A stretch of 64,000 nucleotides of DNA from Psammoneis japonica (Eukaryota): positions 352,979 to 416,978 of the forward strand of contig QPGO01000008.1 of the NCBI GenBank assembly GCA_008632985.1, given 5' to 3'. Position numbers and translations under genes: made by a program. The notes beneath the pieces are model-generated. The model ran no database searches. It saw nothing but the letters and a program-made list of their open reading frames with translations, and was not told where the DNA came from. Below are positions 1,771 through 45,802 of this stretch, piece by piece; within the stretch, counting starts at the first letter, position 1, and each line of letters opens with the position of its first letter.

Positions 1771-2212
1771 ATCCGAGCACTGACTCAGCAAACGACCGCT
1801 TCGGACTGGACCTCAATTGATCCTAGTCAAGAACCACTGAGAAGCAACAAAACCTTGTGACACTTAGGAGACTCACAGAGCAGAGCATTCGGCACAAGCT
1901 CTGCTCCACACAAGGGGGGGTGGGAGAAACCCAAACCCTCCGCAGGGTCCTGCACCAGTGCAGGGGCTCTTCCGGAAATTCAACGGAGCACTGGTGCCTC
2001 GGGCGTTTTCGAGAGCCAACCCCTGGCAGCACACCCTTCGGCATTTCGCGACGTTGGGCAGCGACCAGGGAGCAAAGTGAGCACCTCGAACGAAGACATG
2101 CCAGACCAAGTTTTCCCGCACGAAAACCGAAGCCGTTGAAGGTGTTGTGCTGCGTTGTAATCCCAGACCTTGTCTCATCGACTCCCGAGGCCGAATGAGA
2201 CGGGTCGAGCTC
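1768..2212 (-). repeat. Split direct repeat B1 (445 bp)
   Basis: Match to 941-1499. Confidence 0.95.
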
Positions 2213-2332
2213 CAATCCCCCCCGATGAGAATCCTGGGCAGTGGCCACCAAAAATGTCGATCCGGAGAGCAGGAAGCTGGAAGACTGTTCTCCGGGGACC
2301 CAACGTTGCCAAGGGCTCGCGACCGTCCCGAG

Positions 2333-6900: not shown

Positions 6901-7437
6901 TTCCCCACTCGGGTGTTGTGGCGATGGCGACCCAGGTGGCTTGTAGTCGATGATGTGCCCAATGGACCGTCGCAGGCCTCCATCAAAGACCGGTGCAGGA
7001 ACCCCCCGCCAGAACAGTGCAGTCCGAAAGGAAGTGACACCGCCCACCACCGCATGTGCAATGTCCCGCCGCTGCAACTGGTGCAAACCCAGAAGACTGC
7101 GCCGCGAAACCGCTCCCACAGGGATCACAATCAAAGATCCCGACCGCATTGCATGAGCTGCGGACTCAAGGAACGAGGGTGGGCCCGACACGAACACAAC
7201 ATCAACCCGCCTGGCCAGTTGTTCCACACTTGCCCACGAGACCCGTGCCAAGGAGGCGTTCAACTGGTTCTGGAACAGCTCCGCTGATGGAGAACCCCAG
7301 TGGGACCTGGCAATGTCGTCGCAGCAGCAACAAACAGCAGGCCATTCCCTTGGTCTCAAGGACAAGAGCCAGATTGGGGGACCAGAGGCGAGAATCAAGC
7401 AAGCTCCCTGAAAACAGAAGGCTTTTCTGCCCCGCAT
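3552..7437 (-). pseudogene. pol: DNMT-like N-terminus, reverse transcriptase and RNase H; two in-frame TGA stops and one frameshift
   Basis: ORFs 6856-7437 and 6070-6849 share a frame (TGA at 6856-6858). Frameshift near 6100. RT motifs DLDLGDMFLNF, GMRPSP, TFVDDLR. TGA at 5004-5006 is in frame with 3552-4976, which carries RNase H motifs GFGDASGKG, SSNWKE, FTDNSV, ADGVSRG. Confidence 0.88.
5942..6025. repeat. 42-bp in-frame tandem duplication inside RT
   Basis: ggacccaaaaatggtcggttggactgaccaccctcccacgat / ggacccaaaaataatcggttggaccaaccaccctcccacgat. Confidence 0.95.
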
Positions 7438-7509
7438 GATGTGCCTTGGGTTGTTCGGCCTGTCGAACGAGACCTGGTGCTCCCCTGCATCCTCCGTTCC
7501 CCATGAATT

Positions 7510-9567
7510 TCACTTCTTGCTCTCCAGAGCCTCAAGCCGCCGAGTCAGGTCCTTAATCTCCGTTCGCAATTTGCCCAGATCGACGTGCGCCGAGTCGCCT
7601 CGGGCCTGGGCTGACTTCGCCTCTGAGCTGGCGTTCTTGGCTTTCTCTGTTGGTGTCAGTGCCAAAGATTGCAAATCCGTTGCCACCTCGAATCCTGAGT
7701 TTGCAGCCAGGAACTTGACGTGTTCCGACGCCATAGAAGGGTGGTCGGCAAATCCTAGAGACGTGCACTCTGCCACAACATCGTGGGTCTGAAACACCGC
7801 CCACAAAGTCTTGCTGCACACTGCATCTGGGTCCGTCCCGGAAATGGAGGTAAAAACCCCAGAGCACGCCTTGTGGATGTCCTCGAAAATGCGGTGAGTC
7901 AATTTGGCAGTCAAGGACCACGCTTGCTTCTTGGAGAACTTGCTCAGGTCGGTGAGTGATGCACAAGTGGAGTCTATAAACTGAATCAGCGCCCAAAGAA
8001 ATGCCACCAATTTCGACAATGCGTCCCGGACCACCTGACTTTCAAATGTTCCCGGTCTGATGCGTTGGTTGATGTCTTCCATGATGTCGCTCTCTGTCGC
8101 GGTGATCTTCCCCTCAATGAAGTGCTTTGTTCCGACATTCCCCGAAGACCAGTGTTCGTGGGTCTCGATTTTATCCAAGCAAGAGGGGTGCAAACCCAAG
8201 GTCTGAGACGATTTTGCAGATCCTGAGTCGAAGATCCGAGGCATGCGACATTGGAAGCCCGCCAGAGTTCGCGTGTCTTCCTCGGTGGCGATGTTTGTGC
8301 TCATTTGCTTGGCCCACTGAGACAAAAAGTGATGCAGAGCGGTGGGCTCGATCCCCTTAATCCGGTCCAAGAGCAAGACGACATCAGCCAAGCACCCGCG
8401 TGCCCTCAAGGGGAAATGCTGTGTCATCCAAGCTTGACACTCCTCGCAGGTTGATGCGCCAACCCCCGAGAACTTGATGGCAGACTTGTCTGACTTTGCA
8501 CGCAACTCACTCACAGCGCGGTCTGGGCGTGTGAGGCATGCTTCCACGGACCCTTGATCGAATGAAGCGCCGGGAGGTGCAAACCCCGAACCAAACTGGG
8601 ACTTGATCGACCTGACCTTTGAGGTGAGCTGCGCACAAACACGAAGCATGTCATTCTTCATGTTTTCCAGATCCGCGCGGCTGGCCGTCGATCCCATCCG
8701 ATCTTGCACGTGTTGGAACTTCTCATTGAAAGTTCTCACCAGATTGTTGGATTGGTTTCGCCAACCCGTCTCCACTTGTGTGACACACTCGACCAGGTCC
8801 AGAGATTGGGTTCCGGTTTCCCGGGATGAAACGTTCGCCAGCGTGCCCCAAAGAGCAGGGGCGAGTGGCGCCTCATCAAACCCCTGGGTCGGTTCCCCGA
8901 GAGACGCGTCGAGTTGATCCAGCTTCCGGCTTAGAATCTCAATCACAGACTCCACAGCGTGGAATCGCCTGCCAGCTTTGTCGCCAAAGTCGGCCAGTGC
9001 TTCCCCGGCTTGCCTCAACCCATCCTCGGTCAATTGGACCACACGGGCCAACGCGGACGGACTTTCATTTGCCGCCAGGAACTGCGCCGGGGTGGGGAGC
9101 ATTTGTTTCTCGTGCGGCGTGAACCTCTCCAGAACGGCATCCTCTTGAAGGGTTGACGGTTCCGGCCACTGCTTCCGAGCCGGTGTCTTGAACTCGGCCG
9201 CCCTTTCATGCTCCCTCAGAGTGGGTTCGACCTCGTCCTTGGTGGAAAAGGGCTCACCATTGCCCAGAACCAAGAATTTTTGCCGCCAACCGGCCAGTGC
9301 ATCCGACTCGGCTTCCCACTTGACCAACACTCCACCAGACATGTTTTCGCCATTTAAGATGGGTTGGCAAAAACCCGTGTCCGGGGACTTGAGGATTGCT
9401 GCCACACCCAACGCCAGAACACTCATCTTGCTGCCCTCATGCCTCACATTGCACTTGCTTGCCTTCTTGAGACAGAAGGTGGCTCCTCCACCCTTGATCC
9501 CCAAGCACCGAGGTGCCCCAATGGCCTCCAGCCAGGTGATTCGATGACGAGGCACATGCGAGGACAA
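7510..9567 (-). CDS. ORF1 (gag-like) of the YR retrotransposon, 685 aa
   Basis: Long ORF directly upstream of pol inside the split repeats; Cys/His N-terminal cluster and C-terminal coiled coil (LRTEIKDLTRRLEALE). Confidence 0.75.
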   Translation of the reverse strand: MSSHVPRHRITWLEAIGAPRCLGIKGGGATFCLKKASKCNVRHEGSKMSVLALGVAAILKSPDTGFCQPILNGENMSGGVLVKWEAESDALAGWRQKFLVLGNGEPFSTKDEVEPTLREHERAAEFKTPARKQWPEPSTLQEDAVLERFTPHEKQMLPTPAQFLAANESPSALARVVQLTEDGLRQAGEALADFGDKAGRRFHAVESVIEILSRKLDQLDASLGEPTQGFDEAPLAPALWGTLANVSSRETGTQSLDLVECVTQVETGWRNQSNNLVRTFNEKFQHVQDRMGSTASRADLENMKNDMLRVCAQLTSKVRSIKSQFGSGFAPPGASFDQGSVEACLTRPDRAVSELRAKSDKSAIKFSGVGASTCEECQAWMTQHFPLRARGCLADVVLLLDRIKGIEPTALHHFLSQWAKQMSTNIATEEDTRTLAGFQCRMPRIFDSGSAKSSQTLGLHPSCLDKIETHEHWSSGNVGTKHFIEGKITATESDIMEDINQRIRPGTFESQVVRDALSKLVAFLWALIQFIDSTCASLTDLSKFSKKQAWSLTAKLTHRIFEDIHKACSGVFTSISGTDPDAVCSKTLWAVFQTHDVVAECTSLGFADHPSMASEHVKFLAANSGFEVATDLQSLALTPTEKAKNASSEAKSAQARGDSAHVDLGKLRTEIKDLTRRLEALESKK

Positions 9568-9983
9568 AGAAGACGCACCTTCCCTCTCCGACTCGACCGT
9601 GCCTCCGATGTCACCCGCTAAATCCCGCCCAAAGAAACCAACCCGAGACTAGTGGGTTTCCCTCTGAACCGGGCGGGATGCGTCTCCTTCCAAAAAAATG
9701 GTTCCTGGAGGGTGGGAAATGACTTCCCCTGGCTCCGCTCTGTCAATGTCCGACTGGGGATGACCACAACCCCCCGAAATGTCATCGCTTGTGCCTCGAG
9801 GATTTAAGCCCTCGTGACCCCCCCCTGACATGCAGCCCCAGAAGGGCGAGCCGGAGGAGAGGGAGCCGCCGGAGAGCTCGACAAGAAAGGCGAGACAACA
9901 TCCAACTCCAGTTGACGAGCCAAATCAACGAACGCATCATCCGAGATACCCGAGGCAAAGAAATCCAACATGACAAGGGAGAC

Positions 9984-10230
9984 TAAAAAGAAGAATGCTT
10001 TTCCGAGCTTGAGTGATCCAGTCACGATGATCAGGGTTCCTGTTCCAACAAAGCTGGAAAAGTGAGAGAAAAGAAAACCGAAGTTTGGCCGGTCACAGTC
10101 AGAAGACTAGACCGAGTCATCTTGAGTCGGAAGTGCCCCACTTCCGTCGCGGATCCAGCGAGAGGTCACAGTCATTGAGCGAGGTTGGTTTGAGTCAGTC
10201 CGTCTCCATCTAAACTTGGGTGCGAGGAGG
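9984..10230 (-). repeat. Split direct repeat A1 (5' terminus of the element)
   Basis: Match to 1524-1770. Confidence 0.95.
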
Positions 10231-11479
10231 TTGTCAACAACTGGTGGCTGTTGTCCAGCCAGACTCCCAAAGAAAGGCTCAGAAACACTTCTTGTGCATT
10301 TTTCTCCCTTGCAAGGGTTGCACTGCAGACAACATCAATGTGTCCACCAGCTGTGGTGCAGCTGGCAATCATCAACTTGTGTTTGCAGCTCAAATGAAGG
10401 GTTTTTGCAACACAGGTTTCCTCCAAAAACTGTCACAGCTTTGAAGCATCGCCATCTGCACAGAGAGAAGTGATTTGCAACAAGCCCAGAAGTTGTGTTG
10501 TTGAAGATTTGATGGGCACAAAGCTGTTGCTTTGCTGTTTTTCACACAACCACTGCGTTGTTGTTTGTGTCGGTTGGATGTTTGACTCTGGACACCACAA
10601 TGTGTTCCCTGTGAAAAGTTTGGCATGTTAGAGAGCTGATGTTTGGGTGACACACAAGATGAAGTGTCTTGCATGATGGACAATCTGTCTCAAAAGGCTG
10701 TGTTTGTTTTCAAGCTTTATTTTTCAAAGTTGGTTGGAAGGATTTGAAAATGTAAAACATGCAACTTGTGAGCTGGCAGCACACTGACACATTTGGTTTG
10801 CACACAACTGTCTGGCACCAGCCCCACTTGCTCTGTCAAAGTCAGGTCCCAAACAATGTGCTTCATCATTGCTTTCTTCTTTGTCTTCCAATTCCATCAG
10901 CTGGTCATTGTGTGCTTTGTTGCCTGGAAAGTCTTTCACACAACCAGTGGCTTTGACCAAATGCTTTGTGCAAGTCTCTTGCTTGTGACACACTCTTTCT
11001 TTAATCTTGCAGCTGGCCTCTTCAAAGCAGGCTTCACATTGCTGCCACAACTGCCAAGCACCTTGTCAGGATTTTGCAGCATTTTTAGATGCTCATCTGC
11101 TGCAAAGCTGTGCTTGCACAAGGCGACATTCTTTCCAAGAACAACCATGAGTGCCAACTCCAGTTTTGGTTCTTCCACACCAACAACTTCAACAGCAAAG
11201 GAGCACAAGCTGGTCTTTGAGAAACACTCCAGCAGGTGTTCACATTCTTGCAGGGCACCTGTGAGTTTTGAGCTTGGTGCCTTTCTGTGCTTCTGGATTG
11301 AGAGATCAGCTGGGACAGTCAGCAGCACCCATGTCAAGTGCCTTGTGCTTTGAAGAAAATTGAGTGTTTTCTTTTGTTGTCGTTGGGGCATGGTTGCTGG
11401 CACTTGGCATGCCCCAGTCTGCTGCTCAAGAGTGCTGGTGCAAAGCAAGGTGAGCACTTCTTACACTTGCCCAGGAGAA

Positions 11480-12600
11480 AGAAATGCACCCAATGTGGGA
11501 TTTCTTGATTTGCTGCATTGGAGCAAATGGCAGTGAGGCCACAGCATCTTTTGGATGTTGGCAAAGAGTGCTGCCACAGCAGCAGCAACTCTGTCTTCAG
11601 CAACAGCCTCAAGCCAGAATTTCTGCACTTTTTACTGACACAAATGTTGGTGCTGAAACCCACTTGATGGCACTTGCAAGAAATCCACACTGGTGCAAAC
11701 ACAACACAGCTGCACATGCTGTGCTGGCTGTTGTTCATTTTCTGGTGCTGTGCCGGAGTCACAGACCAAAACAAGGTGTCCCCAACCCTTGTTTGTGCAT
11801 TTGGCATTTTCACAAACTCTAAAGCATTGGCTTCAACTGGGCCACAATGTGTCATTGTGCAACTCTTGCTGTGCAGCCACTTGCCCACTCAACTTTTTTC
11901 CACCTGCATCCAGTGTGGCAAAGATGGAGAGCAGGGGGCAACAACACCACACTGTTGCAATGATGTTTTGCCTCAGCAGCTTGCACGCACACTGTTGTGC
12001 TCCCAAGAATCAGAGAATTTGAGGTGACTTCATGCTGTCATCTTCATCTGCAAGCAGCAATGACAGTGCAAATGAAGCCATGCCAACAATGGATTTCTTC
12101 CTCCCAAAGCAAGCAGGAGAAAAGAGCCCAAGTGTGGTTGGCATTGAGACAGACAGACAAGCCGGCAAAAAAATCAGAGCCAGTCAGTCCTGCTGCCTGT
12201 GACATGCTGTCAACGAGTTGTTGCATTGAGTGCTTGTGATGTGTGTGGCTTTCTTTTCAACTCTGGCAACAAAAAACATGCAACTGCATTTGAAAGAGTG
12301 CCAGAAGCAAGAGTGCAGTTCTTTGCAGCATGGAAGACAACCACAGTGGGTTGGACAGACATGGACACTTGGTGCCGCTAGACTCTGCACTTTGGCTCAC
12401 ACCATTGGCTTGAGCACCGCATGGTCCTGGCAGTGTGCAGGGCAATGGGTGAAACAGGTGGATGAGCTTGAGGACCTGGTTGCCTTGCACAAAGATGTGT
12501 TGTTTCACCTTGCAATTCTCACAGGCTGCATGGCACTGCACTCCCTTTGCCTGTGCATCATTTTGGCATGAACATCTGAGCCTTTGTCAGCTTTTTTCAG
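11480..12600 (+). pseudogene. Heavily decayed transposase relic, possibly Plavaka (CACTA-like) family
   Basis: Frame-broken fragments QARISALFTDTNV, EIHTG and LLFIFW..GVTDQNK..TLVCAFGIFTNSKA recall Plavaka motifs (recognised from memory only). Limits approximate. Confidence 0.35.
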
Positions 12601-12739
12601 ATGCTGCTGACTTTGGATGGAATTTCTTTTTTGCTCAGACAGGAAGAACACATCAGCGGCAGGCTGCCTCTGGTGCAGAACATCTCTTCACCAAACACAG
12701 CAATTTTCTCATTTGGGAAATCTGTGCTGAGAGTTGAGC

Positions 12740-13910
12740 AAACATTGGCTGTCTCATTGAGAGAAATGATTTTGACAGATTGTCACACTGCCACAGGTGC
12801 CCAGCTTGCAAGGGAAATGAAAAATGCAGAGACAACAGCAGCACTGGGTTGGGCAAACAAAAGCTCATGCCCTGTGAGCAGCGCATCAATGCCACACCAC
12901 CTTTGCAGGTTTTCTTGACCCACTGACAACTGCTGGAAGGCAAGGCATGCTGCAAAGCTTGACATCATGGCACTGCAATGACAGGCACATTTTGAGGTTT
13001 GTGGAAGACATTTTCAAAGAGAAGCCCAGAAGCATGCAGAAAGCAGTGTTCTGGAGCTTGGTGATGCAAAAAAAAGCAGCAAATGAGTCTCCTTCAGGGA
13101 CCACAATTTTGCCTGTTGCAGCTTCCAGGGAGTGTGTGCACTGAAGATGTTGCAACTTGCTTCAAAAACAGGTGCAAAGCAATTGCAGGCATCACAGCAG
13201 TGGTTCCACACATTTCCTGATTTTTCAACATCACCATGCATCACCTCTTGACATTTCATTGAGAATCAACCAACCGTGGCTCCAAAGCATGTGGCGCTGG
13301 GATGGAAATCTAGCAAATGTGCTCTGGGAATGTTGACCATCTTGTCATGGCAAATGATTTGACACATTGTTGTGCTGCCATGGGTGGCCAGCTTTCCAGG
13401 AAAACAAAACTTGTGAAAATGATGTGGATGCCAGTGGGGTGGGAAATGAAAGCTCACACCCTGCATGCAAGCAACATGTCCATGCACAGTTTCTTGCAGG
13501 TTTTCTTGACCTGCTGACAACAGCTTGAAGGCTGGACATGCTGTGGAGCTTGGCAGTGTGATGCTGCCACAACAAACACCTTTTGGCTTTTGCAGAAGTT
13601 GTCTCTAAAGTTCAAAGAAGCATGTGAAAGCAACATCCTGGTGTGCTCAGTGTCGTGGGGAAATTGGCAAATGAATCTCCTTGAAAAAACCCATGGCTTT
13701 GCCCACTGCAGTTTCTGGTTTGTGCACAGAACATGTTGCATCTCATTCCAAGAACATTCAAGGCCATTGCAGGTGCCATTGCCTGCCCCTGCATGTTCTG
13801 ATTTTTCCACATTGCCAGGTGGCACTGCTTGACGTTTCATTGAGAGTTGCCCGACCATGGCTTCAAAATGTGATGGAACAGAAATCTGACTCATGTGCTC
13901 TGGGAACACA
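12740..13910. repeat. Diverged tandem duplication, period ~590 bp
   Basis: Anchor caggttttcttgacc..ctgacaac at ~12906 and ~13497; tttttc.aca and gtgctctgggaa also recur at a similar offset. Confidence 0.65.
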
Positions 13911-14179
13911 TCTCCGTGCTGCCACAGAAAGCAAGGATGCCATGGGCTCCAGCCTCTTTGCTCTGGCTTTGCTTTTTTTTGGCTCTTTCAGAGACCACCA
14001 AAAATGGCAACTGCCATCTCAGATGAAGTGACATGGCAAAAGATCAACTCCACCCTCAACACCATTTGCCACACCCTCTGACATCTGGAACAGCACATGG
14101 CAAACCCTTTGAATGAATCTTGATTGACTTGCACACATGTTCTTCCAGCACAATCCAAAGAGATGAAAGACATTGAAGG

Positions 14180-15200
14180 TTGCAGAGCTGAGCAGAAGAC
14201 CACCCAGAGAATCACAAAGCTGCTGTGGTGAGCAATGAAACATTGAAGAATGTGACTTCTAAAGCCTCCACTCTGTTCTCACCTGCAAGATCCCTTGCCA
14301 AAAAGATTGGAAAGGTTGCTGGATGAAATTGTTGCATGAGCGCAGTGTGCAAAAGCTTTGATTTGGGCACCCAACTGAAAGACCTGACAAGAGGGGAGCA
14401 AAAGGAAAACTCTCAACTTGCAAGAAATCCAAAAACTGGAGGGTTGCACTTCCGTGATGCAGCTGCATTGGGTTTGAGGATGAAGAACTGTCAAAAAACA
14501 GAAACAAGAGACCACCCCAAATCACACAGTTGCTGCAGTGAGACGAAAGACATGAAAGGTCACAGAGCTGAGAAACAGACACAGAAGACCACCCAGGATC
14601 ATAAAGTTGCTGTGGTGCACAATTGGATGTTGCAGAGTGTGACTTCCAAAGCCTCCATTTTGTTCTCACCCATGAGATCCCCAGCTAAAAAGATTGGAGA
14701 GGTTGCTGGGTGAAATTGTTGCATGAGGAAGGCATGCAGAAGCTTTCAATTTGGGCACCCAACTGAACGACCTGACAAGAGGGGAGCAAAAGGGAAACTC
14801 TTGACTTGCAAGAAATCCAAAAACTGAAAGGTTGCACTCCCTTGATGCAGCTGTGTTGGGTTTGACGATGAAGAGCTGTCAAGAAACAGACACAGGAAAC
14901 CACCCTGAATGATCACACAGTTGCTGCAGCAAGCAATGAAATGTTGAAGAGCATGCAATGGCCTTCAAGGCCTCTGCACTGTTCTTGCCTGTAAGATCCC
15001 TGGCCAAAAAGATCAGTGGGACAGTTGAGTGAAATTTTTGCATGAGAGTGGTGCGTGGAAGCTTTCAATCAGGGTGTCTGACTGGACAACCCAACAAGAG
15101 GGGAGCAAAAGGGAACTCTTGACATGCAAAAAACCCAAAACAAAATGACTGGACTCCCGTGATGCAGCTGCAGTGGGATCAAGGATGAAAAGAGTGCTTC
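14180..15200. repeat. Three diverged ~320-390 bp units
   Basis: Anchor caagaggggagcaaaagg at ~14388, ~14777 and ~15095, with shared flanking blocks. Confidence 0.8.
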
Positions 15201-15504
15201 TTGTGTGGACAGTTGCAGAAAAAGCACAGCACTTGACAGAGCAGATGGACTCCTCCAGTCCATGGGATGTTGCTGGGTGCCAAGAACACACCACAGAAAA
15301 TGAGGCACATCACTTGGCCAAGGCCAAAAGGCAAATTGACAGGACCTCACTGGGTGGTCAACTCAGGACAGCTGATGGGCTGATTGAAGACACTGCAGAA
15401 GGCTCCTGAAAAAGCACATCCCTTGGCTTTGCGGACAATCAAGGCAGTGGGCATTGCCAGGTGTCAATTGCAGGACATCTGATCAGCTTGTCAATGGTGC
15501 CACA

Positions 15505-16350
15505 GAGCTCAAGGTGCAGCCAATGAAAAGGGATTGCAAAAAATGCTGTGTCCAAGTGTGGACATTCCCTTGGCTCTCTCTGTGGAAGTGGCTGATGTCA
15601 GTGATGGAGTTGGATCGGATTCGGATTTGGCGCAGCAGTCGCAGGACTTGGACTTGCACTCAGTGCAGCAGCAGGAAAGGTGGAGCAGGTGGGCCAAGCT
15701 GATTTGGAAATGAGGAGCAGGGAATGGTGTTGGGTTGCTTGTGTGGCAGGATTGGGCTTGGTGCAATGTCGTCAGATCCAACCAATGAACCCTCATCAAT
15801 CACAAGGGTTGCTGTGTGGTGCAAGAGAGCTCAAGGTGCAGCCAACGAAAAGGGATTGCTAAAAAATGCTACGTCCAAGTGCGGACATTCCCTTGGCTCT
15901 CTTTGTCCCAAGCAGAACTGGCCAATGTCAGTGATGGAGTTGGATCGGATTCGGATTCAGCGCAACAGTGGGAGCACTTTGATTCGGACTTGGCGCAGTG
16001 GTGCAAGAGGCAGAGCAGGTGGGCCAATGGCCGATTCGAAATTGGTGAGCAGGGGATGGTGTCGGATTGACTGTGCGGCAGGATCGGGCTTGGCACGCTG
16101 TCGTCATGTCCAACCAATGAACCCTCATCAAATTGAGGGTTGCTGTGTGGGACAAGAGAGCTCAAGGTGCAGCCAACGAAAAGGGATTGCTAAAAAAATG
16201 CTACGTCCAAGTGTGGACATTCCCTTGGCTCTCTCTGTCCCAAGCAGAAGTGATCGGATTCGGATTCGGTGTAGTAGTGGGAGGACTTGGATTCGGACTC
16301 AGTACAATAGTGCGAGAGGCGGAGCAGGTGGGCCAAGCCGATTCGGAATT
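15505..16350. repeat. Three tandem ~325-bp units (last one partial) at the edge of the TpA-depleted domain
   Basis: Anchor gagctcaaggtgcagccaa at ~15505, ~15827 and ~16158. Confidence 0.9.
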
Positions 16351-21300: not shown

Positions 21301-22214
21301 TTGGGTGGAGTGGCTGCAGAAGAAAATGTCCTTGTCCGAGTTGAATGGTTGCCAGAGGAAGCGCGGCGAAGGCTTTGATGATTCGTGCTATTGACAAGCA
21401 CCGGGCGGCCTCCAGTGCCCCCTTGCGTCTTGAATCTAGCTGGGCTGGTATCACGCTGATTCACAACACCAGACGCGTCCAAGACAACGGCACTCCCGGC
21501 TTTCGTGTCAGACGATAATCCGTTTGCCTCTAGAGCTCTGCTCGATTCCATAGTATTGCTCGAAGTTTGCTTGGGAGTGACTGCCGGTCTCGTATCGTTG
21601 ACAAAATAATGCCAGGCAGAAGGTGCCTTCGCTATTTCTAAATTCAAAAGAAAGAGATGAAGTCGATGAGAAGAAAGTGTCGTGATCGCGCTGGCAACAA
21701 AATGAAATGCGTGTCGCTTACCTTGATTTCGTTTTCGAATTTCATTACTGGGCCCTTGAAATGGTTTGAAATCGTTGCAAACTCGAGTCGTGGTCAGAGC
21801 TTTCGTTTCTTCTTCCGACAATCCAATCGGCCTCCTAACCAAGTAGGGTCGTTGAAGTGTCGCATTCCCGAGAATAGGCCCTAGGCTTTTATCAATCTCC
21901 GTCCACGTCAGATATTCTTGGTATTGGATAGTTTCAGCGCGGCCCGTCTCACGCGAGCTTTGGCGGGCGCGGAGGGGCTCTGAAGACCGTTTCGAGTCGA
22001 GCTCTCTTTGGTGATTCCTCACCCCGTTTGAATGATACTTTGGAGCTTTGTTCGCTTCATCAGATAACTTCCGTCGCTTAGACCAATTCCGATCCTTGTC
22101 TCGTTTTCCCCTCCTCCTTTTAGATATGTGCGAATCAAGAGTCAGTTTTTCGTAGAGAGGATTTGCCGACGGCGAATCTTCATCCGATGATGATGGTGCC
22201 GTGAATCTCGGCAT
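18334..22214 (-). CDS. Three-exon hypothetical protein (~1227 aa), mostly low-complexity, with a C-terminal globular domain carrying a possible Cys-His-Asp triad
   Basis: Exons 22214-20942, 20847-20269 and 20165-18334 join in frame across GTAAG..AG introns 20941-20848 and 20268-20166 (both phase 1). Normal TpA content. Confidence 0.7.
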
Positions 22215-22987
22215 ATTCAATTCGAACCGCTTCCAGCAGCTGCACAAGAGTTGGATAAGAAAACGAAGCTTGCATGTGAGAGGGAGACTTGATAGGGAGA
22301 AGTGCGAATGAACACAACAGTGATACAAAGCAATTGTTACCTTTTTCAAGCAGGCCAACGGTTTTTCGCGGCGATTTGGATTTGGAAAGCCGACGTTTCA
22401 AACGACGTCCTTTGATTTTGTTGCTTGACAAAGAGCTTCTCCCAACGTTGCTACAAGCAAGGCACGAGACGTGAGATAATGAATAAGGATACAAGACGCA
22501 AGGAAAACAAGAAGGGAAGGCGAAAGAGCAACACTCACCGATTGCAGGCAAGTCAACAACGATAACAACAAAGAACGCTATGAGACTTGATGTCAATGTT
22601 TGATGTTCAGTGCTGTGACTTCGAACTCTAGTTCGCGTGTTGAGTCGTCGTTGCAAATATCAAGTAAACGTACATTTGTCTGATGACGTCAGGGGTGACG
22701 TAGAAGGCATAAATAAGGCCGGCTATTCAGCAGTTCCTCTCAGCCAGATAGAAGAAGAAGAGAAAAGGAAAAGGAAGGAAAAAACATTGATGGTTTGAAA
22801 GGGTGCACTGCAGCACCGCAGTGCGCACAGTAATGAAGACGGACGCAGACAGGTGCAGATGCGCTGCGTGGAATTTGGTGCGAAGTTTCATGCGTTTGCG
22901 TGCGCAGAAGGATGTGGAGCGCCAATGGCTGGAATGAAGCAGCACACCACACAGCAGTCAGTGCAGCTCTGTCATCACGGCGCTAGA

Positions 22988-24484
22988 ATGGCGGAGGACA
23001 ACATCGTTGCGTCTGGCAAAGCTGAGGATGCAGCAGCTCCGGAAGTCATGGCAGAAGTCACGGGCGCCGAAGGCGCGGCGGCAGTTGCCATGACTGCACT
23101 TGGCGCTGAGGGAAGTGCCGAGGGCATGTCCATCGAGTCCGAACGCACAAGGATGTCGGAGAAGCCGGCGCAGTCCCAAACTGAAAAGAGGGAGAAAGCC
23201 GAGCCGCCAGAGCCAACTTTTCAAATTTGTGGTTGGAATGAAGCACAGCAGCTGGGTCACACCGCCGAGCAGCTGCTTGAGGCCGGTTGCAAGATCGAGT
23301 TGGTGGGTGATCAGGCCACCTTTGTGAAACCGGAGGTCCCACCTTTTTGCAGCGGCAAAAGCGAGGAGGCAGCCAAGCCCGCGGCCAAAGTGGTCGCGAA
23401 AGCAACGGCGGAAGAGGAAGAAGAAGGAAATCAAGAGGAAGAAGAAGGAAATCAATTTCCGGACCCCAACGAACCGTCATTCGACTTGTGGGACTGGGTG
23501 TTGCGGCACGAAAAATCCGATGATTTCCAGGAGTCCATGTGCCTGATGAAGGATGCGCCGAACAATCCCAACCTCTGGTTCCCCGCGCTGGGAGAACTGG
23601 GGTGCATCAGGAGCGACCCTGAAGCCGTCGTGAATGCTCACGGCGAACACTGCAAGTGGGTGTGGAGGTGCCGCACGGAAGTCGGCAAGAGGGGCATCCC
23701 AGACTCGACGCCGAAGAGCAATGAAGTGTAAAGACCGCCGTCGAGGCTTTCGAAGCAGGGTGGTCGCTCGCACTGGTCTACCTCGTGAAGAGAGCAAGTG
23801 CAGAAGTGTGCACATTTGGATGAGGCGCCGTGTCATCCAACCTGCGTTGTTTTGCCTCGAAAAGTCCGTTCGCTCCGCAGGCCCCAAGGAGGTGGAGGTG
23901 GGCGAGCTGCGCGCATCGCAACGGAGGGGCGCAGGCACTGGTTTTTTTGCTTTGCGCCAGTTCCAGAAAGGCAGTGCGGTTGGAATCTACGTGGGCCCCA
24001 GGGTGCCCGGTACGACGAGGAGCTGCTCGTGGTACGACCACGACAGCAAGTTTGGAGAAGACCACAGCGTGTGCTGCTCCACCATCCGTGACAGCGAGGG
24101 CTGCCACGTCACAGTGGAGCCAAAACCGCTTGATTTTAGCGGTCCAGGGAACAAGAATTCTATCCACTCCACCTTGGAATGCACTGCGTGAACGATGCCA
24201 CCGAGTCGTTCAAGGACAAGAAGAAGATCAAGGCAAGCCAACATGCGGACAACAACTGCGAGTTCTACAACGACGGGTGCTTGGCAGTCACAAAGCGAAT
24301 CATGCCCAGGGAGGAATTTCTCTGCAGATGCAATTTGGACGAATTGGAGAAGAAGAAGAAGAAGAGGAAGGTGACGTCGGGTGCCATGAATCGGAAGAAG
24401 AAATCGCGTCCACTCCCCAAGTCGGGGAGGAGAAGCTCTGCGTCTTTTCAAAACGTCTGCCGTGTAGTTTGCTCTGTAAATTAG
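22988..24484 (+). pseudogene. SET-domain protein, frameshifted (near 23720 and 24180) and TpA-mutated
   Basis: GAGTGFFALRQFQKGSAVGIYVG (SET motif I), HCVND, and KRIMPREEFLCRC (E-x-x-x-x-Y with Y->C). The acidic ORF 22988-23731 overlaps the SET frame and is probably its N-terminus. Confidence 0.7.
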
Positions 24485-24580
24485 CAGCACAGTGTGTTGG
24501 TGTTTTTCAGCGAAACTGTGGCATTAGTTGAAAAGGCATAGCCCCAGTTGTGGTTCGAAAAATGGGAACGAGGAAGAACA

Positions 24581-24704
24581 GAAAGTCGGTAAATTTGCGC
24601 AAATCTGGCAAATTGGTGGGCACCTGCACAGTCGCCTGAGTGCAGAAAGTCAGCAAATTTACGCAAATTTAGCAAGTTATTTTGCACTGTCACAGTCGCC
24701 TGAG
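24581..24704. repeat. Two diverged 60-bp units, period 64, between the convergent SET and dioxygenase ORFs
   Basis: gaaagtcggtaaatttgcgcaaatctggcaa...acagtcgcctgag / gaaagtcagcaaatttacgcaaatttagcaa...acagtcgcctgag. Confidence 0.85.
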
Positions 24705-26123
24705 AATGGTCTCTTCCTCTAGAGAAAGGGGGATTGAATTGTTGTTCTTGCCCACCACAGCACTCTTCAGGCAGAGAGACACGCAGAAGAACTCGTCGTT
24801 TGAGCTTGTCCTGCTGGAGATGCAGTGGCACTTGGTGGGGTTAAAAATGATGACATCACCAAGCCGGAGTGCAACGGAGATGCCTTCGGCAGGGAAGCAG
24901 AAGCACGCCACAATCCCGTCATTCATGGTGTGGCTGCCGGATGGAGGGACTCCCACCACGGTGACCACTGACAGGAAGAAGTCCTCGTCCCGATGGGCGT
25001 TGAGGAAGACATTGCGCCCAGCCGCCAGAGAGGAGAAAATGCCATCTGACCGCACCAGGGATTTCCAGTTGTTAAACTTTTTGACACGAGCGACACCCTC
25101 AAGGATGGCACAGTCCACGCACTCATTGACAAGGTGCTCCATGCGTGAAAGAAGTCTGGTGAGGTGGTGAGTGTGTTGGTCGGCTGTGCCAGGCTGCTTG
25201 CAAGAAATTCGAGCGTCTCTCGTGGCAGCCAGGCCAATCGTGGAATGCTTGCTCCTGTCAGTCTCCATGAAGGTAACGCGTTGTTTGCCGTGCACGGTGG
25301 ACTGGGCGGTGCAGCATTCTAGTGCTTCGAGCGCTCGGCACTGAGCAACCAGTTCTGCTGGGTTGGGGGAGCTGAACACCACAGCAGAATGCGGCAGCAG
25401 GGTGCAGGTGTTGTGGCAGCGGCAACCGTCCAAGCCAAAGAAAGGCTTCAGATCAAGCACAGGGTCACAGACGACCAGAGGAGCCAATCCGGCAAAGTCA
25501 AAGTCAGCAAGACAAGGTGGTGCAGGCTGAGTGTAGTCGCCATTATAAACTAGAGTGCGGTTGGCCACGCAGTGCATGGAGAGACTCTCAGTGGCGCACA
25601 GTGCGAGTGGAACGAGGCGAGTGATCTTGGATGTTTTCCTGCTGGCGCGGCTGTGGATTCGCCTGCGGCTGCGGTGGGCCTTGCGAAGTGGCGGTTGAGC
25701 CCTCAACACGTGCTCGTACATCCTGGTGCGCATTGACAATGCGGTGTTCGCAGAGAACGTGTGTGCGAACTTGCCGGCAAACGTTCCGCTGCTTGACACT
25801 GTCACTGTCGTCTCAACAGTGCCCAAAGCAGAACTCTGTCGACAGGGACCGGTGGACTCCAGGGGAGTGGGGTCAAAACCTAATCGAGAGATGTGTCTGC
25901 TTTCCGTTGCCTCAAGAGCACCCAAAGCAAAACTCTGTTGACAGGGACCGGCGGACTCCAGGGGAGTGGGGTCGAAACCTAATCGCGAGAAGGATTTGCT
26001 TGTTGTCGGGCCGCGAGCTGCACATCCCAAACCCCCACACTGTCGAGACCGGCTGTAACTCGATCGCGACAAGTGCTTGTCGTTGGCAGGACGACGCAGC
26101 GAGGCACGAGGTGGTTGCGTCAT
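24690..26123 (-). CDS. 2OG-Fe(II) dioxygenase, TET/JBP-like (open frame but TpA-mutated)
   Basis: NAHRDEDF (HxD), VALRLGDVIIFNP, KCHCISSR (distal His) and CVSLCLK, in DSBH order; basic low-complexity N-terminus. Confidence 0.6.
   Translation of the reverse strand: MTQPPRASLRRPANDKHLSRSSYSRSRQCGGLGCAARGPTTSKSFSRLGFDPTPLESAGPCQQSFALGALEATESRHISRLGFDPTPLESTGPCRQSSALGTVETTVTVSSSGTFAGKFAHTFSANTALSMRTRMYEHVLRAQPPLRKAHRSRRRIHSRASRKTSKITRLVPLALCATESLSMHCVANRTLVYNGDYTQPAPPCLADFDFAGLAPLVVCDPVLDLKPFFGLDGCRCHNTCTLLPHSAVVFSSPNPAELVAQCRALEALECCTAQSTVHGKQRVTFMETDRSKHSTIGLAATRDARISCKQPGTADQHTHHLTRLLSRMEHLVNECVDCAILEGVARVKKFNNWKSLVRSDGIFSSLAAGRNVFLNAHRDEDFFLSVVTVVGVPPSGSHTMNDGIVACFCFPAEGISVALRLGDVIIFNPTKCHCISSRTSSNDEFFCVSLCLKSAVVGKNNNSIPLSLEEETILRRL
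25812..25989. repeat. Two 79-bp units, period 99 (33 aa), in the dioxygenase N-terminus
   Basis: SRLGFDPTPLES(A/T)GPC(Q/R)QS(F/S)ALG occurs twice. Confidence 0.95.
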
Positions 26124-26432
26124 GGTGTGTCTCAATTTGAATTGTGTTTCAAAACACAATGACGGAAGTGTTGTCGCGTTGTTTTTGTCTCCGCGGAGGG
26201 AGGATCATCCCACGGCAATCTCAGTGCGAGTTCTCGCGTAGAAGTGCGTTACGTGCCGTGCCAGCTTGTGCGTTTGAATTACACAGACACACAAGTACGG
26301 CAGCGATGAGAAGCAGGTCGAGATTCAAAACAAATTTTACCGCCCAAAGGCGTCTTGTTGTTTCAACGCGTCTGCATGTCTGTTTAAAATGACTTTGTGT
26401 GTCGCTCCACACGCAGGTAGAGGCAGCACGCC

Positions 26433-27302
26433 GTGTTTGAAAATTTCGCGCGCACAGAGGGCGCGACGGCAATTTTACGCATTCTGCGCACGTCACAGTT
26501 TGGTTTGGAAACGCGACATCTGGTCGAACCCGCTGCAAGCAAGGTTGATGTTGCCACAAGGTTGGATGCGATGAACCATCGTCACAGAAGTTTTGGGGAG
26601 TTTCATCATCAAACGGCTCCGGACTCCGCGTTCCAGAGCAGGCGTGTCTCTGGAGACGGAAGCGGATCTTCGCACGGCGGCGAAGTTGGCTTCGCTTTGA
26701 GCAGCGAAGTGTTTTTGAACGAACGCCTTCTTGGCGTGAATCACACCTGCGATGCATCTGTCGACATGGGCGGGGGAGTTGCCGGACCCAGCATCGGGCT
26801 CAAGTTACTTCGTCGCCGTTGCACCGTGGTGAGCATCGAGGCCGACCACGATCGTCACCAAGAGGCTGCATGTTGGGCTCATCATGCTGGCCTTTGCTCG
26901 AACGGTGGGTTAGAGTTGATCAACAAGTCATTTTTGGACGAGAGGCTGGCTCCTTTGTGGAAAAAGAAAGGACTCAAGGTGTTCTTCAACAACTGCAACT
27001 CCCGCATGGTCGACGACAAGATCACACAGCAGAAGGCAGAGGCGATGCTTTCGAAGTTGTGTCGTGCTGGGACCGTGATGGTGGTGCTAGATCCGCTGTT
27101 CGCATCGTGCGCAGGAGAGTGGATGTGCGAGTCGTTCACGGTGGATTGCCATGATGGCGACTTTTTGTGGCACAGCGGAGACGTGAAACATCTCGTCTTC
27201 CACAAGTGCACCAAGAAAGAGGAGACTTCTCAGTCAACCAGCCAGCACATGCGACGTCCCACTCCGACACACTTGGAACGGAAGTGTTGCGCAAGCACTT
27301 GA
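26433..27302 (+). CDS. Class I SAM-dependent methyltransferase, DOT1-like (TpA-mutated; start uncertain)
   Basis: FGEF (DOT1 YGE), VDMGGGVAG (motif I), VVSIEAD (post-I), KVFFNN and RAGTVMVVLDPL, in DOT1 order. Confidence 0.55.
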   Translation: MFENFARTEGATAILRILRTSQFGLETRHLVEPAASKVDVATRLDAMNHRHRSFGEFHHQTAPDSAFQSRRVSGDGSGSSHGGEVGFALSSEVFLNERLLGVNHTCDASVDMGGGVAGPSIGLKLLRRRCTVVSIEADHDRHQEAACWAHHAGLCSNGGLELINKSFLDERLAPLWKKKGLKVFFNNCNSRMVDDKITQQKAEAMLSKLCRAGTVMVVLDPLFASCAGEWMCESFTVDCHDGDFLWHSGDVKHLVFHKCTKKEETSQSTSQHMRRPTPTHLERKCCAST

Positions 27303-30300
27303 GCAACGAATTGGCAGAGCAAAATGAGCTCTCCAATTGGACAGTGGTTTCAACTCATCTGCACAGCTGCACAATGGCACCATGGCATCTCTGTGTGTCT
27401 CTGCTCTTTGGTCAAATGACTGCAAGTTGTCCAAGGAGACTTGTCAGAGTGGCGCAGCAGTTGCTCCATCAAAAGAGACAGCCACAATTGGAGGGTCTGA
27501 CCCAGGCAACACCTCATGTTGGTCATGTTGAATTTGTCCAAGAGGAGGAAGGCACAGAGACAACAAACTTGAAAACAGCTGTTGCAATGCTCACCATGCA
27601 AAGCAAGATGATTTGTCACCTCTGCCAGAAGATGGAAATGCTGCAGAGGGAGGCAAAATGCCGGTGGCTCTTGTTTGAAGGCTGTCACAGCAGAAAAAAG
27701 ATGAGGAAACAAACCTTGCAACAAACAAACACTCTGCAAGCAAAAACACTGTTGAACAGTGCCCAGACCTCATGAGGAATTTTGCTCTCATGCATGCATG
27801 AGAACCCAAGAAACTTGCCTCCAAAAAGCATCCCATGATCTGTTGCAAGAAGCGTGCTTGTCTGGTCTTCTGTGAATTGCAGACCTCCAGCAGAGTCAAT
27901 CCAGCATCCAAAGACAAGCTCAGCTCCAGCACTGTGGATCTGAGATCATCTGCATGTTGGAAATCCAAACAAAGTCCATTGCTTTTGCTCATGTTTGTGA
28001 AGGCCTCATTGCTGCTGCAGCACTTGTTTGCTCAAAAACTCTTGAATGGCCAGACTTCAGCACAGCTGTTGCAGCACTGCTTTGACATGAAACAACAAAG
28101 CAAGAAGTTGAGTTGATCAAGAGCCATTTTGTGGCAATGACGTGCATGCACAACAGCTGATGTTTGGTGCAAGGTGCCTGTGAGATGCTGTTTGATGATC
28201 TTGGATTTCTTAGAAGCAAGGTGCTGAGGCTGCTGATGGTGGCACAAAATGACCAAGATGTTCTAAGTCAGATGTTTGCTCCCACACCATGTGGCTGTCA
28301 GCAAACAAAGTGCAAAGTGAAAGAGTTGAGAAAATGCTCAGTTTGAACAAAACAAAGTTGCCATCTCATTCAAGCTCCTGGCTTTCAACAGAAGACATCA
28401 AAGACAAGTTGCTGGAAGACCAACTAACATCGATGTGCTGCCAGTTTTCTGTTGCAAAATTTGAAAGCTTCCCCCAGTTCTTGGTGGCCTTTGTTCATGT
28501 TGGAGCTCTCATCTGTTTTGTGTGATGAAGAGAACAGACAATTGGTGAGTTCACGCAAGACAGCCTGCCAGCAGCAAGCAATGTGGGAGCTTTTTTTGCA
28601 CATGATGAGCCAAACTTACAATGGAAGAAAAGAGCTTGTGCAAAGTGCAACCTGACAAAGGTGGCAAACACATCAAATGCAAAATTTGAAAATGGTTTTT
28701 GAATGGCTGAAAATTGCAACAGCCTTGAGTTTCTTTGACTCAAATGCTTTGCACTTGAGGACAGTGCAGCTGGTGACAGCATTTTTGATTTTGGCTCGGG
28801 CAGTGCTGGGAGCACTCTTGAGAATGCAAAGTTGTGGAAAGCCACAGGTGCAATGAAAGAGAAACAGCTTTCAATGGTGGGGCTTTCATTTGAACTTGTG
28901 TGTGACTTGGTGATTGTGCCACTGGACAACCCTGGGTTTGAGAGCTGTGCCATGGTTGTGCTGGCCAAGACTGAGTGAAAGAGCAGTTGACCAAAACACA
29001 CTGCAGCTCTTTGTCATGTGGCACCCATCATTGCTGGTTGCTGGGGTGGAGGCCCCCATTTTTTGTGATTGGAGCACTGACAGCCAAAGTGAGTGCTTTG
29101 TGCACTGCACATTTTTTCTGTGGCACTGGCAATGGGAGACATTGTTTGTTTGTCAGAGCTTGTCAGCTGGTGCAAAATTTGTGGCCAGCTGAAGAGCAAT
29201 GAGTTTCTTCTGTCACATTTCTTCCAGACCATTGATCCTTTTGCAAGAGCTGATTTTCCCATTTCCCATTTGTTCCACGTGCAGGTGGGCTTTGTCACAA
29301 ATAATTTTTGCTCCCAATCAAGCACCAAATGGGTCACAACAAAGCTGAGTGATCCTGGCAAAATCCAACCAAAGCCAAACCACAACTGGCGCTGCCCTGT
29401 TGACAAATGTTTCACCACACAGTTTCATGGACATCAGCAAACTGGAGCCCACAATTGGGAAAGTGAGCTCACCCTGCCCAGGGCTGCAAATTTGTTTAAA
29501 GTCCACAAATGTCCCAGGGCTCCATTGACTCAAAAGTGTCATTGCTCAACAACGCGCTCAACACCTCATGAGTTCAGTCAATTTCCAGAATGTGTTTGCC
29601 ATCTGCAGACCCAATGATGCAAAGACCCTTTTGCCGTGTGAGTTTTCACTGTTTGCAAACAGCTCCTGAAATGAGATGATGAAGAACTCCTGGGTTCTCT
29701 GCAATGCACCTGGTCCCACTGAGTGCTTGCAAACAAGGGCGGGGGTTGGGCAAAGGAAAAAACTCAACAGCGCCCCTTTGGCCAGTCATTTGGAAATCAT
29801 GTTGAAGCCCTGCCAGTGCAGGGCCCCAGACATGCCATCCATCAAAGGGATGAGTTGTGAGAGACTGAGTGTTTTGTCATGTGCAGCGCTGTCTGTTTCA
29901 AACCTGGAAGCCCCCCATTGCCTTTCTTGTGCTTCTTTGCTGAGGCCAGAGAAGTTGATCTAAGGACACACCCTCATTGTTGCAACAAGCAGCACAGGAG
30001 AGCTGAGGCATGAAACAGCACATCAACAGGAACAGCAGAGCTCACACTGGCACTGTGCACCATTTTAGTTGGATGATGCAGATGGCGACATGACCTTCCA
30101 TGCAGCAACAATGGAAGCATCATGCATGCCACCCGTGCAATAAAAAGCGAAGTCGAAAACGCAATGAAATGTGCAGCAGCACTGCAAAATGCTGGCCCTT
30201 TTAATCAAAACTGCAAAGCCACGGATAACACAAACAAAGCACGATAACCTAAAAGGAAGATGCTGCAGTGCGAAAATACTTTCTTGTCACATTCTAATTG

Positions 30301-43025: not shown

Positions 43026-44113
43026 AAAAGAAAGGTCTTGGTCAACGTCGTCAGGGAACCCGTGCCGAAGACGAAGGCTGTTATTATTTAGTCTAGGGAC
43101 ATAGTTTCAAGTTCCAAAGCAGATTCTTACCTCATGTATGTAATCAAAATCCAGCTGGCCTCCGCCCTACCGGTAGCTTCTAGAAAGGGTAGGGAATGCA
43201 AGTCGAACGTCAAAATCAAATACGATGCGAAGGTGAATCAACCATCATCACTATTTGACATCAACGCGTGGAATTGGGGAGGCCTCATAACTGCATCAAC
43301 TACTGTACAGTACGAAAATCTATCGTTTTGTAGTAGAGCTCTCTGCGGAGCTCTCCATGAAAAGTAACTGGACAATCAGACGCGGCGGACGTAAAACGAA
43401 TGCCTCATCGTGGACCCCAGGCAAGGAAAGCATGCTAACGAGAAAAAATCTGAAAGAAAGAGAGCGGTGTGGTACGAAAACAGAAACGATGGCATCAAAG
43501 TATGCAACAACATCGCAAGCGGTGCGACCGCCATCGTAGTCCATTGACATACGTACGGAATAAATTACACGCAAATAAAGATTGCCACAATGTACTTTTA
43601 GTCTTTCTACACACATTGGAAAAGTTTCAAAGCGTGTTTCAAACATTTGAAACACGCCAATGTCAAAAGTTGATAGAATTGGTCGCGTAGGATAACATTG
43701 CCTCAAGAGCGCCATCAAAAGATGGCGTTCAAGCTTTTTCTTATTTTCGGGGTGGAAAACCATCCCAAAAAAAAGAAAAAGGGGGGACGCACCACGGAGA
43801 CAACAAGAAAACTTGCGAGTCAACCGCGTGCTAAATCAACACTCCCTGTGAGTGAAGAGTTGCCGCACCACGTCACTGATGCGACGGAACCCCAAACCCC
43901 GCGTTCCGTCAATGGCATGATCTGCTTGGCGAGCTTTTGCTGCTTCGCAGACGAACGCTGCTGTCTGTTTCAACAGCCGTGACCTGACGGGTCAAGCGAA
44001 CAGGCAACTTCCTGCGGTCAAAGACACAGGAGCAACATGGACTCCAGGCCGGAGACACGCACTCGATTTGCCCCGACCTCCGGACTCAACTGGCAACACC
44101 TGCGCTGCCATTT

Positions 44114-44405
44114 GAGACAACACGCCATCAAGCAAAATGATTTGTGGAACACCAAACAAGAGCAGGCAATTAGAGCCAGAGGAAGGGCGAGCCATCCTTG
44201 GGTGTCGCGGCATTCCGGCTTGGCAAACAACAAGCACATCGTGCGAGACGACGAGTCGAAAAAGAGAGACAACACACCATCAAGCAAAATGAGTTGTGGA
44301 ACACCAAACAAGAGCAAGCTCTCAATCCAGAGGAAGGGCGAGCCATCCTTGGAGATTGCGGCTTCCCGCTTGGCAAACAACAACACATCGTGCGAGACGA
44401 CGAGT
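44114..44405. repeat. Two ~140-bp direct repeats, period 152
   Basis: gagacaacac.ccatcaagcaaaatga...gtgcgagacgacgagt occurs twice. Confidence 0.92.
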
Positions 44406-44499
44406 TTTTTTGCACATGTGTGATTGAACAACGAGCGCGGATTCTCACAGATTTTGAGTCGTCATGACCGTTGCTAAATTTGTCAATCACTGTCATTTT

Positions 44500-45700: not shown

Positions 45701-45802
45701 CTTCGTTGAAAGTGGACCAACTTTCTCAACATGTCTGTGGACATGCGCATGTGAAGACAGAACAAATGGGATGCAGCACTGGGGTGAATTAGCTGCGGCT
45801 CT

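Follow-up and report, generated by a model that had tools for sequence, protein, structure and literature searches.

What is a cluster of three putative chromatin enzymes doing among the genes of an intron-poor stretch of eukaryotic DNA, and does it come from a mobile element? The cluster lies in a 64,000-nt stretch of contig QPGO01000008.1 (positions 352,979 to 416,978 of the forward strand), which we call the window and whose first letter is position 1 of all coordinates below. An original prediction, made from the letters alone, described a SET-domain gene, a TET/JBP-like dioxygenase gene and a DOT1-like methyltransferase gene as the cargo of a large element that its host later inactivated. 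Three neighbouring open reading frames (ORFs) are present in that order and on those strands, at 22859–24484 (plus), 24690–26123 (minus) and 26571–27302 (plus). We find it probable that the block containing them is a decayed, broken-off copy of a multicopy mobile-element cargo module, degraded by transitions directed at TpA and CpG dinucleotides.

Copy number and edges of the repeat block

Copy number was estimated from one DNA run, the sole run containing the block, which is kept as contigs and was compared with positions 22000–30000. The expectation of multiple copies was borne out: 973 contigs at 90–100% identity cover the region from ~22.7 kb to 27288 (264 at at least 99% identity, 393 at 95–99% and 316 at 90–95%), with summed depths of 1000–4400, whereas the right flank has 64. 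By bins, the depth is 1014 at 22534–22800 and 1380–4412 across 22801–27072. We place the repeat block at 22690–27288 (no strand assigned), its left end being approximate and its right end being the end of the match to other copies. On the right, depth is 64 from 27340 on, and a single 4075-nt contig covers 27259–30000. Loose ends of 2 contigs carry different letters past 27288; because other-copy contigs differ beyond this position, the window copy breaks off there, within the last codons of the methyltransferase ORF. The adjoining stretch at 27289–30100 (depth 64) is single-copy, lies outside the repeat, has lost both TpA and CpG, and has no Pfam match. On the left, the flank at 22000–22533 has a depth of 175–241, three to four times that of the right flank, and one contig skips 22240–22340; a low-copy repeat may therefore be present here too.

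Where copies differ, the change is usually a transition (63 of 75 counted places). Among 40 listed differences, the window has TG or CA where others have CG at 16 places, and CA or TG where others have TA at 8, with 2 in the reverse sense.

The minus-strand ORF encodes a TET/JBP-like dioxygenase

A hidden Markov model (HMM) check for PF00856, PF12851 and PF08123 gave no match in any of the three ORFs, and a Pfam search with seven ORFs of the finding returned nothing useful at E ≤ 1. With no Pfam family to go by, each of the three names had to be tested by other means. For the minus-strand ORF (24690–26123, 477 aa), in which a conserved domain occupies 24690–25550, the identification as a TET gene is certain. 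This TET/JBP-like 2-oxoglutarate/Fe(II) dioxygenase ORF has a homologue, P0001, at 42% identity (E 1.2e-32), whose family numbers 884 cluster representatives at E ≤ 1e-3, 72 of them at E ≤ 1e-30. We aligned 56 sequences: the window domain, P0001 and 54 of the 150 listed matches, chosen for long matched stretches. His186, Asp188, His242 and Lys262 are invariant across the alignment. The two His and the Asp form the HxD...H iron triad, and the window copy retains all three (minus strand; His at 24993–24995, Asp at 24987–24989, His at 24825–24827).

An AlphaFold2 model from this alignment had a predicted local distance difference test score (pLDDT) of 88.9 and a predicted template modelling score (pTM) of 0.86. 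When the model was searched with Foldseek, listed ranks 1–26 were all CcTet, CMD1, TET2 or NgTET1, with a best E of 8.9e-8 and template modelling (TM) scores of 0.44–0.54. VIA-align, which is independent of Foldseek and was run over 48,161 chains, placed TET2 at the top (Z 17.8, root-mean-square deviation 3.6, 253 aligned), followed by NgTET1 (Z 15.3), CMD1 (13.8) and CcTet (13.4); the best AlkB-type chains reached 12.4. The predicted dioxygenase identity thus holds at the level of the modelled fold as well as of the triad. At the level of sequence, Pfam gave 0 families for the window ORF at E ≤ 1 and 0 for P0001 at E ≤ 10, and among the 56 aligned members PF12851 (Tet_JBP) matched 1 (E 0.0023) and PF20515 matched 1 (E 0.0027). 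A PDB sequence search with the ORF found no match, and one with the TET profile found chance-level matches only. Protein-language-model neighbours of the ORF are diatom clusters, and Fragilaria crotonensis proteins occur in a related TET-like 90% cluster (that of P0004, itself a match of P0001), which makes a diatom origin of the window plausible. Judged by its model, the minus-strand product is a TET/JBP-fold enzyme of a divergent family that lies outside the coverage of the Pfam models.

The window copy is damaged in a particular way. It departs from the consensus at 11 of the 48 columns conserved at 70% or more. All 4 conserved Tyr codons now read CAY or TGY and 2 near-invariant Arg codons (CGY) now read CAY, so that the near-invariant residues Arg54, Arg87, Tyr102 and Tyr260 appear as His, His, His and Cys. 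Other genomic copies still hold the earlier letters at two of these sites: T at 24772, giving TAC (Tyr260), in one, and C at 25390, giving CGT (Arg54), in another.

Relatives of the dioxygenase gene lie beside transposon genes

Scanning metagenomes with the TET profile brought up 437 matching stretches, 171 of which encode relatives, and we analysed the best 80 loci (436,996 bases). The statement that genes of this kind travel with transposons was supported for this family. A Plavaka-type ORF cluster is present in 12 of the 80 loci, 6 of its scanned ORFs scoring above the cut-off of Pfam PF18759, and Helitron-type Rep/helicase ORFs are present in 7. In a quick tree that kept 76 of 81 sequences, TET relatives grouped by the type of their neighbours, with 3 changes for each type against a mean of 9 after shuffling. 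The Helitron-linked loci (L007, L009, L010, L017, L052, L054 and L075) carry F-box, UCH, U-box, RING and ubiquitin genes, a cargo unlike the window's set. Five further loci (L028, L034, L036, L037 and L038) are near-identical, and in these the TET gene sits amid ORFs of 1300–1433 aa and others of 388 and 516 aa that have no Pfam family, in what appears to be an unknown element of at least 20 kb.

No transposase or termini had been identified at the outset, and searches of the window by tblastn, HMM, Pfam and inverted-repeat detection likewise identified none. In tblastn comparisons of the locus ORFs with the window, TET alone matched. HMMs for the Plavaka cluster and for cluster 4 gave no match at E ≤ 10 in the six-frame window translation, no terminal inverted repeats were found in the window, and none of 116 window ORFs of at least 100 aa in TpA-poor domains had a Pfam family at E ≤ 0.01. 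Since the window copy is broken off at 27288, the transposase gene may lie in other copies.

Loss of TpA in the block and its right flank

The block carries the TpA-loss signature originally ascribed to it. Dinucleotide values are given here as observed/expected ratios unless stated as percentages of dinucleotides. TpA is 0.21 in the block (22701–27288) against 0.62 in host DNA; the corresponding values are 0.90 and 0.97 for CpG, 1.39 and 1.15 for CpA, and 1.32 and 1.18 for TpG. In the right flank (27289–30000) TpA is 0.04 and CpG 0.11, with CpA at 1.74 and TpG at 1.89. This TpA-poor island has sharp edges near 22.8 kb and 30.1 kb. The Tyr content is 0.65% in block ORFs versus 2.58% in host ORFs, and that of Cys 4.73% versus 1.78%. 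The loss of TpA in the block is real and far beyond chance.

The direction of change, from TA to TG or CA, follows from three observations: the fate of the conserved Tyr of the TET domain, the Tyr columns of the methyltransferase (7 of 9 now TGC or CAC) and the survival of the Tyr260 and Arg54 codons in other copies. Of the motifs first quoted as relics of lost Tyr, SLCLK and FNNC do sit at Tyr positions of relatives, but the first Cys of KCHC aligns with a Gln of P0001. TpA in the 80 related TET loci ranges from 0.39 to 0.94 throughout, and the signature is therefore that of the host and not of the gene family. Within the block, TpA is 0.16 in ORF1, 0.20 in TET and 0.08 in the methyltransferase ORF, rising to 0.39 and 0.30 in the two spacers and to 0.68 at the left edge. 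Better retention in spacers is the opposite of what protein-level selection would give; it might mean a transcription-linked process, on counts that are small (6 and 8 sites). The most depleted stretch, 27289–30100, is single-copy at 90% identity, so the process is not obviously dependent on repeats.

Two other parts of the window are also TpA-poor. A large domain at 1–16000 shows the two states of the block and its right flank again, with TpA 0.13 and CpG 0.71 at 1–10000, and TpA 0.05 and CpG 0.15 at 10001–16000. It contains five long minus-strand frames at 2336–9648, possibly another decayed element; these frames had no relative in Pfam, in the PDB or among viral contigs, the last scanned with the ORF at 7513–9648. 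A third TpA-poor island, at 44000–46000 amid host genes (TpA 0.09, CpG 0.78), includes a 243-aa frame at 44173–44901 that has no family.

The small methyltransferase ORF

The plus-strand ORF at 26571–27302 (243 aa, zero Tyr) resembles small S-adenosylmethionine (SAM)-dependent methyltransferases. It has a single homologue, P0002 (E 9.5e-68), 51% identical across 98% of its length. P0002 contains 9 Tyr and the window protein none; six of these columns read TGC in the window and one reads CAC. A language-model search with P0002 returned DOT1 clusters from haptophytes, diatoms and giant viruses, with scores from 0.96 to 0.93 and 184–202 of 256 features shared; the top clusters scored 0.96 with 201–202 features, and the ten best named matches all belong to this one family. 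The sequence has a Gly-rich motif I and an Asn-Asn motif, which we take to be like those of DOT1.

Other searches were less informative. Pfam at E ≤ 1 gave the ORF only a chance-level DAO match, with no PF08123, and gave P0002 no family at E ≤ 10. AlphaFold2 yielded no usable model from the two-sequence alignment (pLDDT 31). The sole match of a PDB profile search was an O-methyltransferase over the Gly-rich motif I/post-I region (E = 0.1), a PDB sequence search with P0002 found chance-level matches only, and a metagenome scan with the methyltransferase found no relative. Conservation with P0002 indicates that the ORF is a real gene, and this part of the predicted DOT1-like methyltransferase stands, together with its DOT1 neighbours; the expected PF08123 match and a usable model did not materialise. 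From the neighbours and the motifs, we regard a DOT1-like identity as reasonably likely.

ORF1 and its putative SET/PR-like stretch

The first ORF was the least well served by closer analysis. The plus-strand interval at 22859–24484 is not one reading frame. Its N-terminal part (22859–23731) is a 290-aa Ala/Glu-rich frame with no family and no Tyr; its codon-usage score clearly favours the claimed frame, 0.129 versus -0.075 to -0.199 in the other five, and the remaining claimed block frames show only a weak preference. The stretch bearing the SET-like motifs is split over two frames. The first half lies at 23838–24159, in the frame whose codon starts are divisible by 3, and the second at 24161–24484, whose translation contains VNDA and EEFLCRC and ends at a TAG stop. 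The break is a 1-bp deletion at 24159–24160. Two contigs that together account for the entire local depth (958.5 of 958.5) have one more base here, a C after 24159, which joins both frames exactly. The frame break is real and specific to the window copy; the SET/PR-like domain is not in one frame there, and the other copies carry the missing base. Single-base insertions in other copies, after 23728 and after 23835, would connect the 290-aa ORF to this stretch via the third frame, which in the window is interrupted by a TGA at 23821. In one other-copy contig, an extra T after 23728 abolishes the stop of the N-terminal part.

The SET assignment itself fared worse. Neither piece matched Pfam at E ≤ 10. 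Searched against 177,635 distinct PDB sequences, the first piece gave one match, the PR/SET domain of MECOM over its N-terminal Gly-rich strands (E = 1.1, 12.7 bits), and the second piece gave none. The MECOM match alone is not significant and is notable only since SET was the prior guess. The 185-aa SET-like ORF had no homologue among proteins of 101–324 aa, and neither piece resembles the host SET protein encoded at 58783–59490, which itself matches PF00856 at E 5.2e-11. A competing frame of 235 aa is open over the same DNA (23824–24528). The block is poor in stops, with 31 TAA and TAG codons in 4588 nt versus 259 in 13800 nt of host DNA; TGA is the only stop still common in TpA-poor DNA, and long open frames are therefore expected there by chance. 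Whether ORF1 has a SET/PR identity is close to an even question, in our judgement tilted slightly towards no.

At the left repeat edge (22680–22750), a TGACGTCA palindrome and a CATAAATAAGG stretch both retain TpA and may be promoter elements of ORF1.

A probable decayed cargo module and its alternatives

Taken together, these results point to ~22.7 kb–27288 as one decayed copy of a repeat that would exist in tens of copies in the source genome. The element type is most likely a DNA transposon or Helitron-type element, of which the window copy would be the cargo part without the transposase. On this reading the ancestral unit coded for a TET/JBP dioxygenase, a small, probably DOT1-like Rossmann-type methyltransferase and a protein of ~540 aa with a possibly PR/SET-like C-terminus. 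By analogy with the fungal transposons that carry TET genes, the dioxygenase would act on the DNA of the element itself, oxidising 5-methylcytosine, and the methyltransferase or methyltransferases would write histone marks that oppose silencing; from this analogy we infer a possible role as an anti-silencing kit, as first proposed. The host would then have degraded the window copy by A:T-to-G:C transitions at TpA, giving TpG or CpA, and by ordinary decay of CpG to TpG or CpA, with small deletions adding to the transition damage. The TpA process matches in kind the hypermutation that integrated foreign DNA undergoes in Bigelowiella natans. That the window copy was inactivated, as supposed at the outset, is supported by its frameshifts and by its TpA- and CpG-directed transitions.

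Several observations weigh against a mobile three-gene module. The DNA run used for copy number may be the window's own source sample and so is not independent. The contigs inside the block are short (142–287 nt among those listed); they show each part to be multicopy but leave linkage of the three genes within every copy unproven, and a joint from 26555 to 25908 reveals rearranged variants. Because the window yielded no transposase, terminal repeats or target-site duplication, the term mobile element stands on copy number and on distant relatives. The claimed co-occurrence of the three genes was not recovered elsewhere: 0 of the 80 TET loci contain a relative of the SET-like pieces or the methyltransferase, nor of four other window ORFs, and SET and DOT1 are both absent, at E ≤ 1e-4, from the 150 longest of 181 non-overlapping neighbour ORFs of at least 130 aa. 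The window TET sits on a long branch (1.66) and can be assigned to neither the Plavaka-linked nor the Helitron-linked group. Finally, since TAA and TAG are few in TpA-poor DNA, an open frame such as ORF1 says little about whether a gene is present.

One alternative is that the dioxygenase alone acts on chromatin or DNA, ORF1 being no SET protein and the methyltransferase acting on a non-histone substrate, so that the kit is an over-reading of motifs in stop-poor DNA enriched in Cys and His codons. The SET and DOT1 assignments lack a Pfam match even at E ≤ 10, ORF1 has no homologue and is unlike the host SET protein, the only PDB profile match of the methyltransferase is an O-methyltransferase at motif I (E = 0.1), and the 235-aa frame at 23824–24528 is open on the same DNA. 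Yet the base that restores the ORF1 frame in other copies sits exactly where the motifs predicted a change of frame, the best match of the ORF1 piece among all 177,635 PDB sequences is a PR/SET domain over its N-terminal Gly-rich strands, and the DOT1 neighbours of the methyltransferase are consistent. We judge this over-reading unlikely, if by no means negligible. Also unlikely, and a little more so, is the fullest form of the proposal: an element of a diatom-like alga with a TET/JBP eraser and DOT1-like and PR/SET-like writers, disarmed by near-saturated, TpA-specific adenine-to-guanine editing together with CpG decay. Such an element would be the first known case of DOT1-type transposon cargo and the first TET-carrying element described outside fungi, and editing of this kind has so far been reported only in a chlorarachniophyte.

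Other alternatives concern the origin of the block. It could be a piece of integrated viral or virus-like DNA (giant virus, virophage or polinton-like) and not part of a transposon. Giant viruses commonly carry DOT1-like and SET genes, several Nucleocytoviricota DOT1 clusters are among the language-model neighbours of the methyltransferase, and published TpA hypermutation strikes integrated DNA of nucleocytoplasmic large DNA viruses (NCLDV) and virophages. Scans of viral contigs with the methyltransferase, the TET family profile and the SET-like piece, however, found no relative; tens of diverged copies better match a transposon, and it is Plavaka and Helitron genes that adjoin the TET relatives, which makes a viral source improbable. 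More improbable still is a non-mobile multigene family of the host that expanded through segmental or tandem duplication and whose redundant copies are decaying. The window without detected transposase or termini would fit such a family, as would the left flank at 22000–22533, whose depth exceeds the single-copy level (175–241 versus 64). But the repeat stops sharply at 27288, within the last codons of a gene, the TpA signature is limited to sharp-edged islands beside normal host genes, and the TET family is linked to transposons elsewhere. A decayed copy of mobile-element cargo accounts for these features best.

Other features of the window

The window is eukaryotic and intron-poor, with host genes that include those for eRF1, carbamoyl-phosphate synthase, E2F, a P450 and the SET protein mentioned above. 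Inside the block, two tandem 62-nt units (79% identity, 24579–24704) lie in the spacer between the convergent 3′ ends of ORF1 and TET, and a 99-nt tandem duplication (85% identity, 25807–26001) lies within the 5′ part of the TET ORF. The spacer between the divergent TET and methyltransferase ORFs, at 26124–26570, is less TpA-poor than the coding parts. Rfam found no match at 20–31 kb, and tblastx of the block against the remainder of the window found none.

Implications

If the preferred reading of a decayed cargo module is true, transposon-borne TET genes extend from fungi to a photosynthetic protist lineage, where they are paired with candidate chromatin writers, and this pairing would allow the resistance of elements to silencing to be studied in a concrete case. 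The TpA to TpG/CpA signature is much deeper here than in the one published case, falls on a repeat family, and bears on the contest between algae and mobile DNA over silencing. Should the organism be other than B. natans, it would represent a second lineage with a TpA defence and a natural place to seek a DNA adenine deaminase. There is also a practical side: TpA-poor DNA loses its TAA and TAG stops, its Tyr codons become Cys or His codons and Pfam no longer finds matches, so that genes there will be missed or mis-called by annotation pipelines.

Comparison with known systems

Transposons carrying TET/JBP genes were reportedly treated by Iyer et al. in PNAS in 2014. Our literature searches found no TET-carrying elements in diatoms, and nothing relevant among the matches listed on TpA depletion in diatoms or on DOT1 or SET genes carried by transposons. 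Kojima 2025 (PMC12730594) describes fungal DNA transposons that carry TET/JBP genes, for which a role in escape from methylation-based silencing is proposed; neither diatoms nor stramenopiles are mentioned there. Like the window block, the fungal elements (Kyakuja/Dileera/Zisupton, Plavaka, EnSpm, Helitron and others) carry a TET/JBP-fold dioxygenase as a passenger of multicopy elements. The window differs in that its host is non-fungal and the closest named relatives of its dioxygenase are diatom proteins; its copy lacks a transposase and a Tet_JBP Pfam match, and has two further putative methyltransferase genes. For the putative SET gene there is a precedent among stramenopiles, again noted in Kojima 2025, which cites Repbase Reports: HarbingerS and MuDR transposons of Phytophthora captured SET-domain genes, that is, a histone lysine methyltransferase gene rides on stramenopile transposons. 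The window SET is only putative by comparison, and no Harbinger or MuDR transposase was found among the window ORFs. The third ORF is similar in size to the small DOT1-like methyltransferases of haptophytes, diatoms and giant viruses (~200–300 aa), its nearest language-model neighbours, and differs from them in having no PF08123 match and one sequence homologue.

The TpA signature has its closest parallel in B. natans. According to Mettrop et al. (bioRxiv 10.64898/2026.01.13.699255), integrated NCLDV and virophage DNA in that alga undergoes TpA to TpG/CpA hypermutation, transposon domains are over-represented in TpA-poor clusters, and an ADAT2-like adenine deaminase is proposed. The two cases share changes from TpA to TpG or CpA on both strands and TpA-depleted islands with an excess of CpA and TpG in foreign or repeat DNA. 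Depletion in the window is far deeper, TpA making up 0.3–1.05% of dinucleotides versus 3.3% in the B. natans NCLDV region given there, although the block values of CpA and TpG fall under the 1.52 cut-off, which that study set for its own genome. Host DNA in the window has 4.2% TpA and long uninterrupted ORFs, versus the 6.0% TpA reported for B. natans in the same study, and the window is thus probably from another organism. The window also differs in that a multicopy element is hit, and in the near-total CpG loss coupled to TpA loss in neighbouring stretches. Fungal repeat-induced point mutation (RIP) likewise hypermutates particular dinucleotides by transitions; it ruins repeats, and islands of skewed composition remain. 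RIP, however, converts CpA to TpA, so that TpA rises, whereas in the window TpA is destroyed and CpA and TpG rise, and the most depleted window flank is single-copy at 90% identity.

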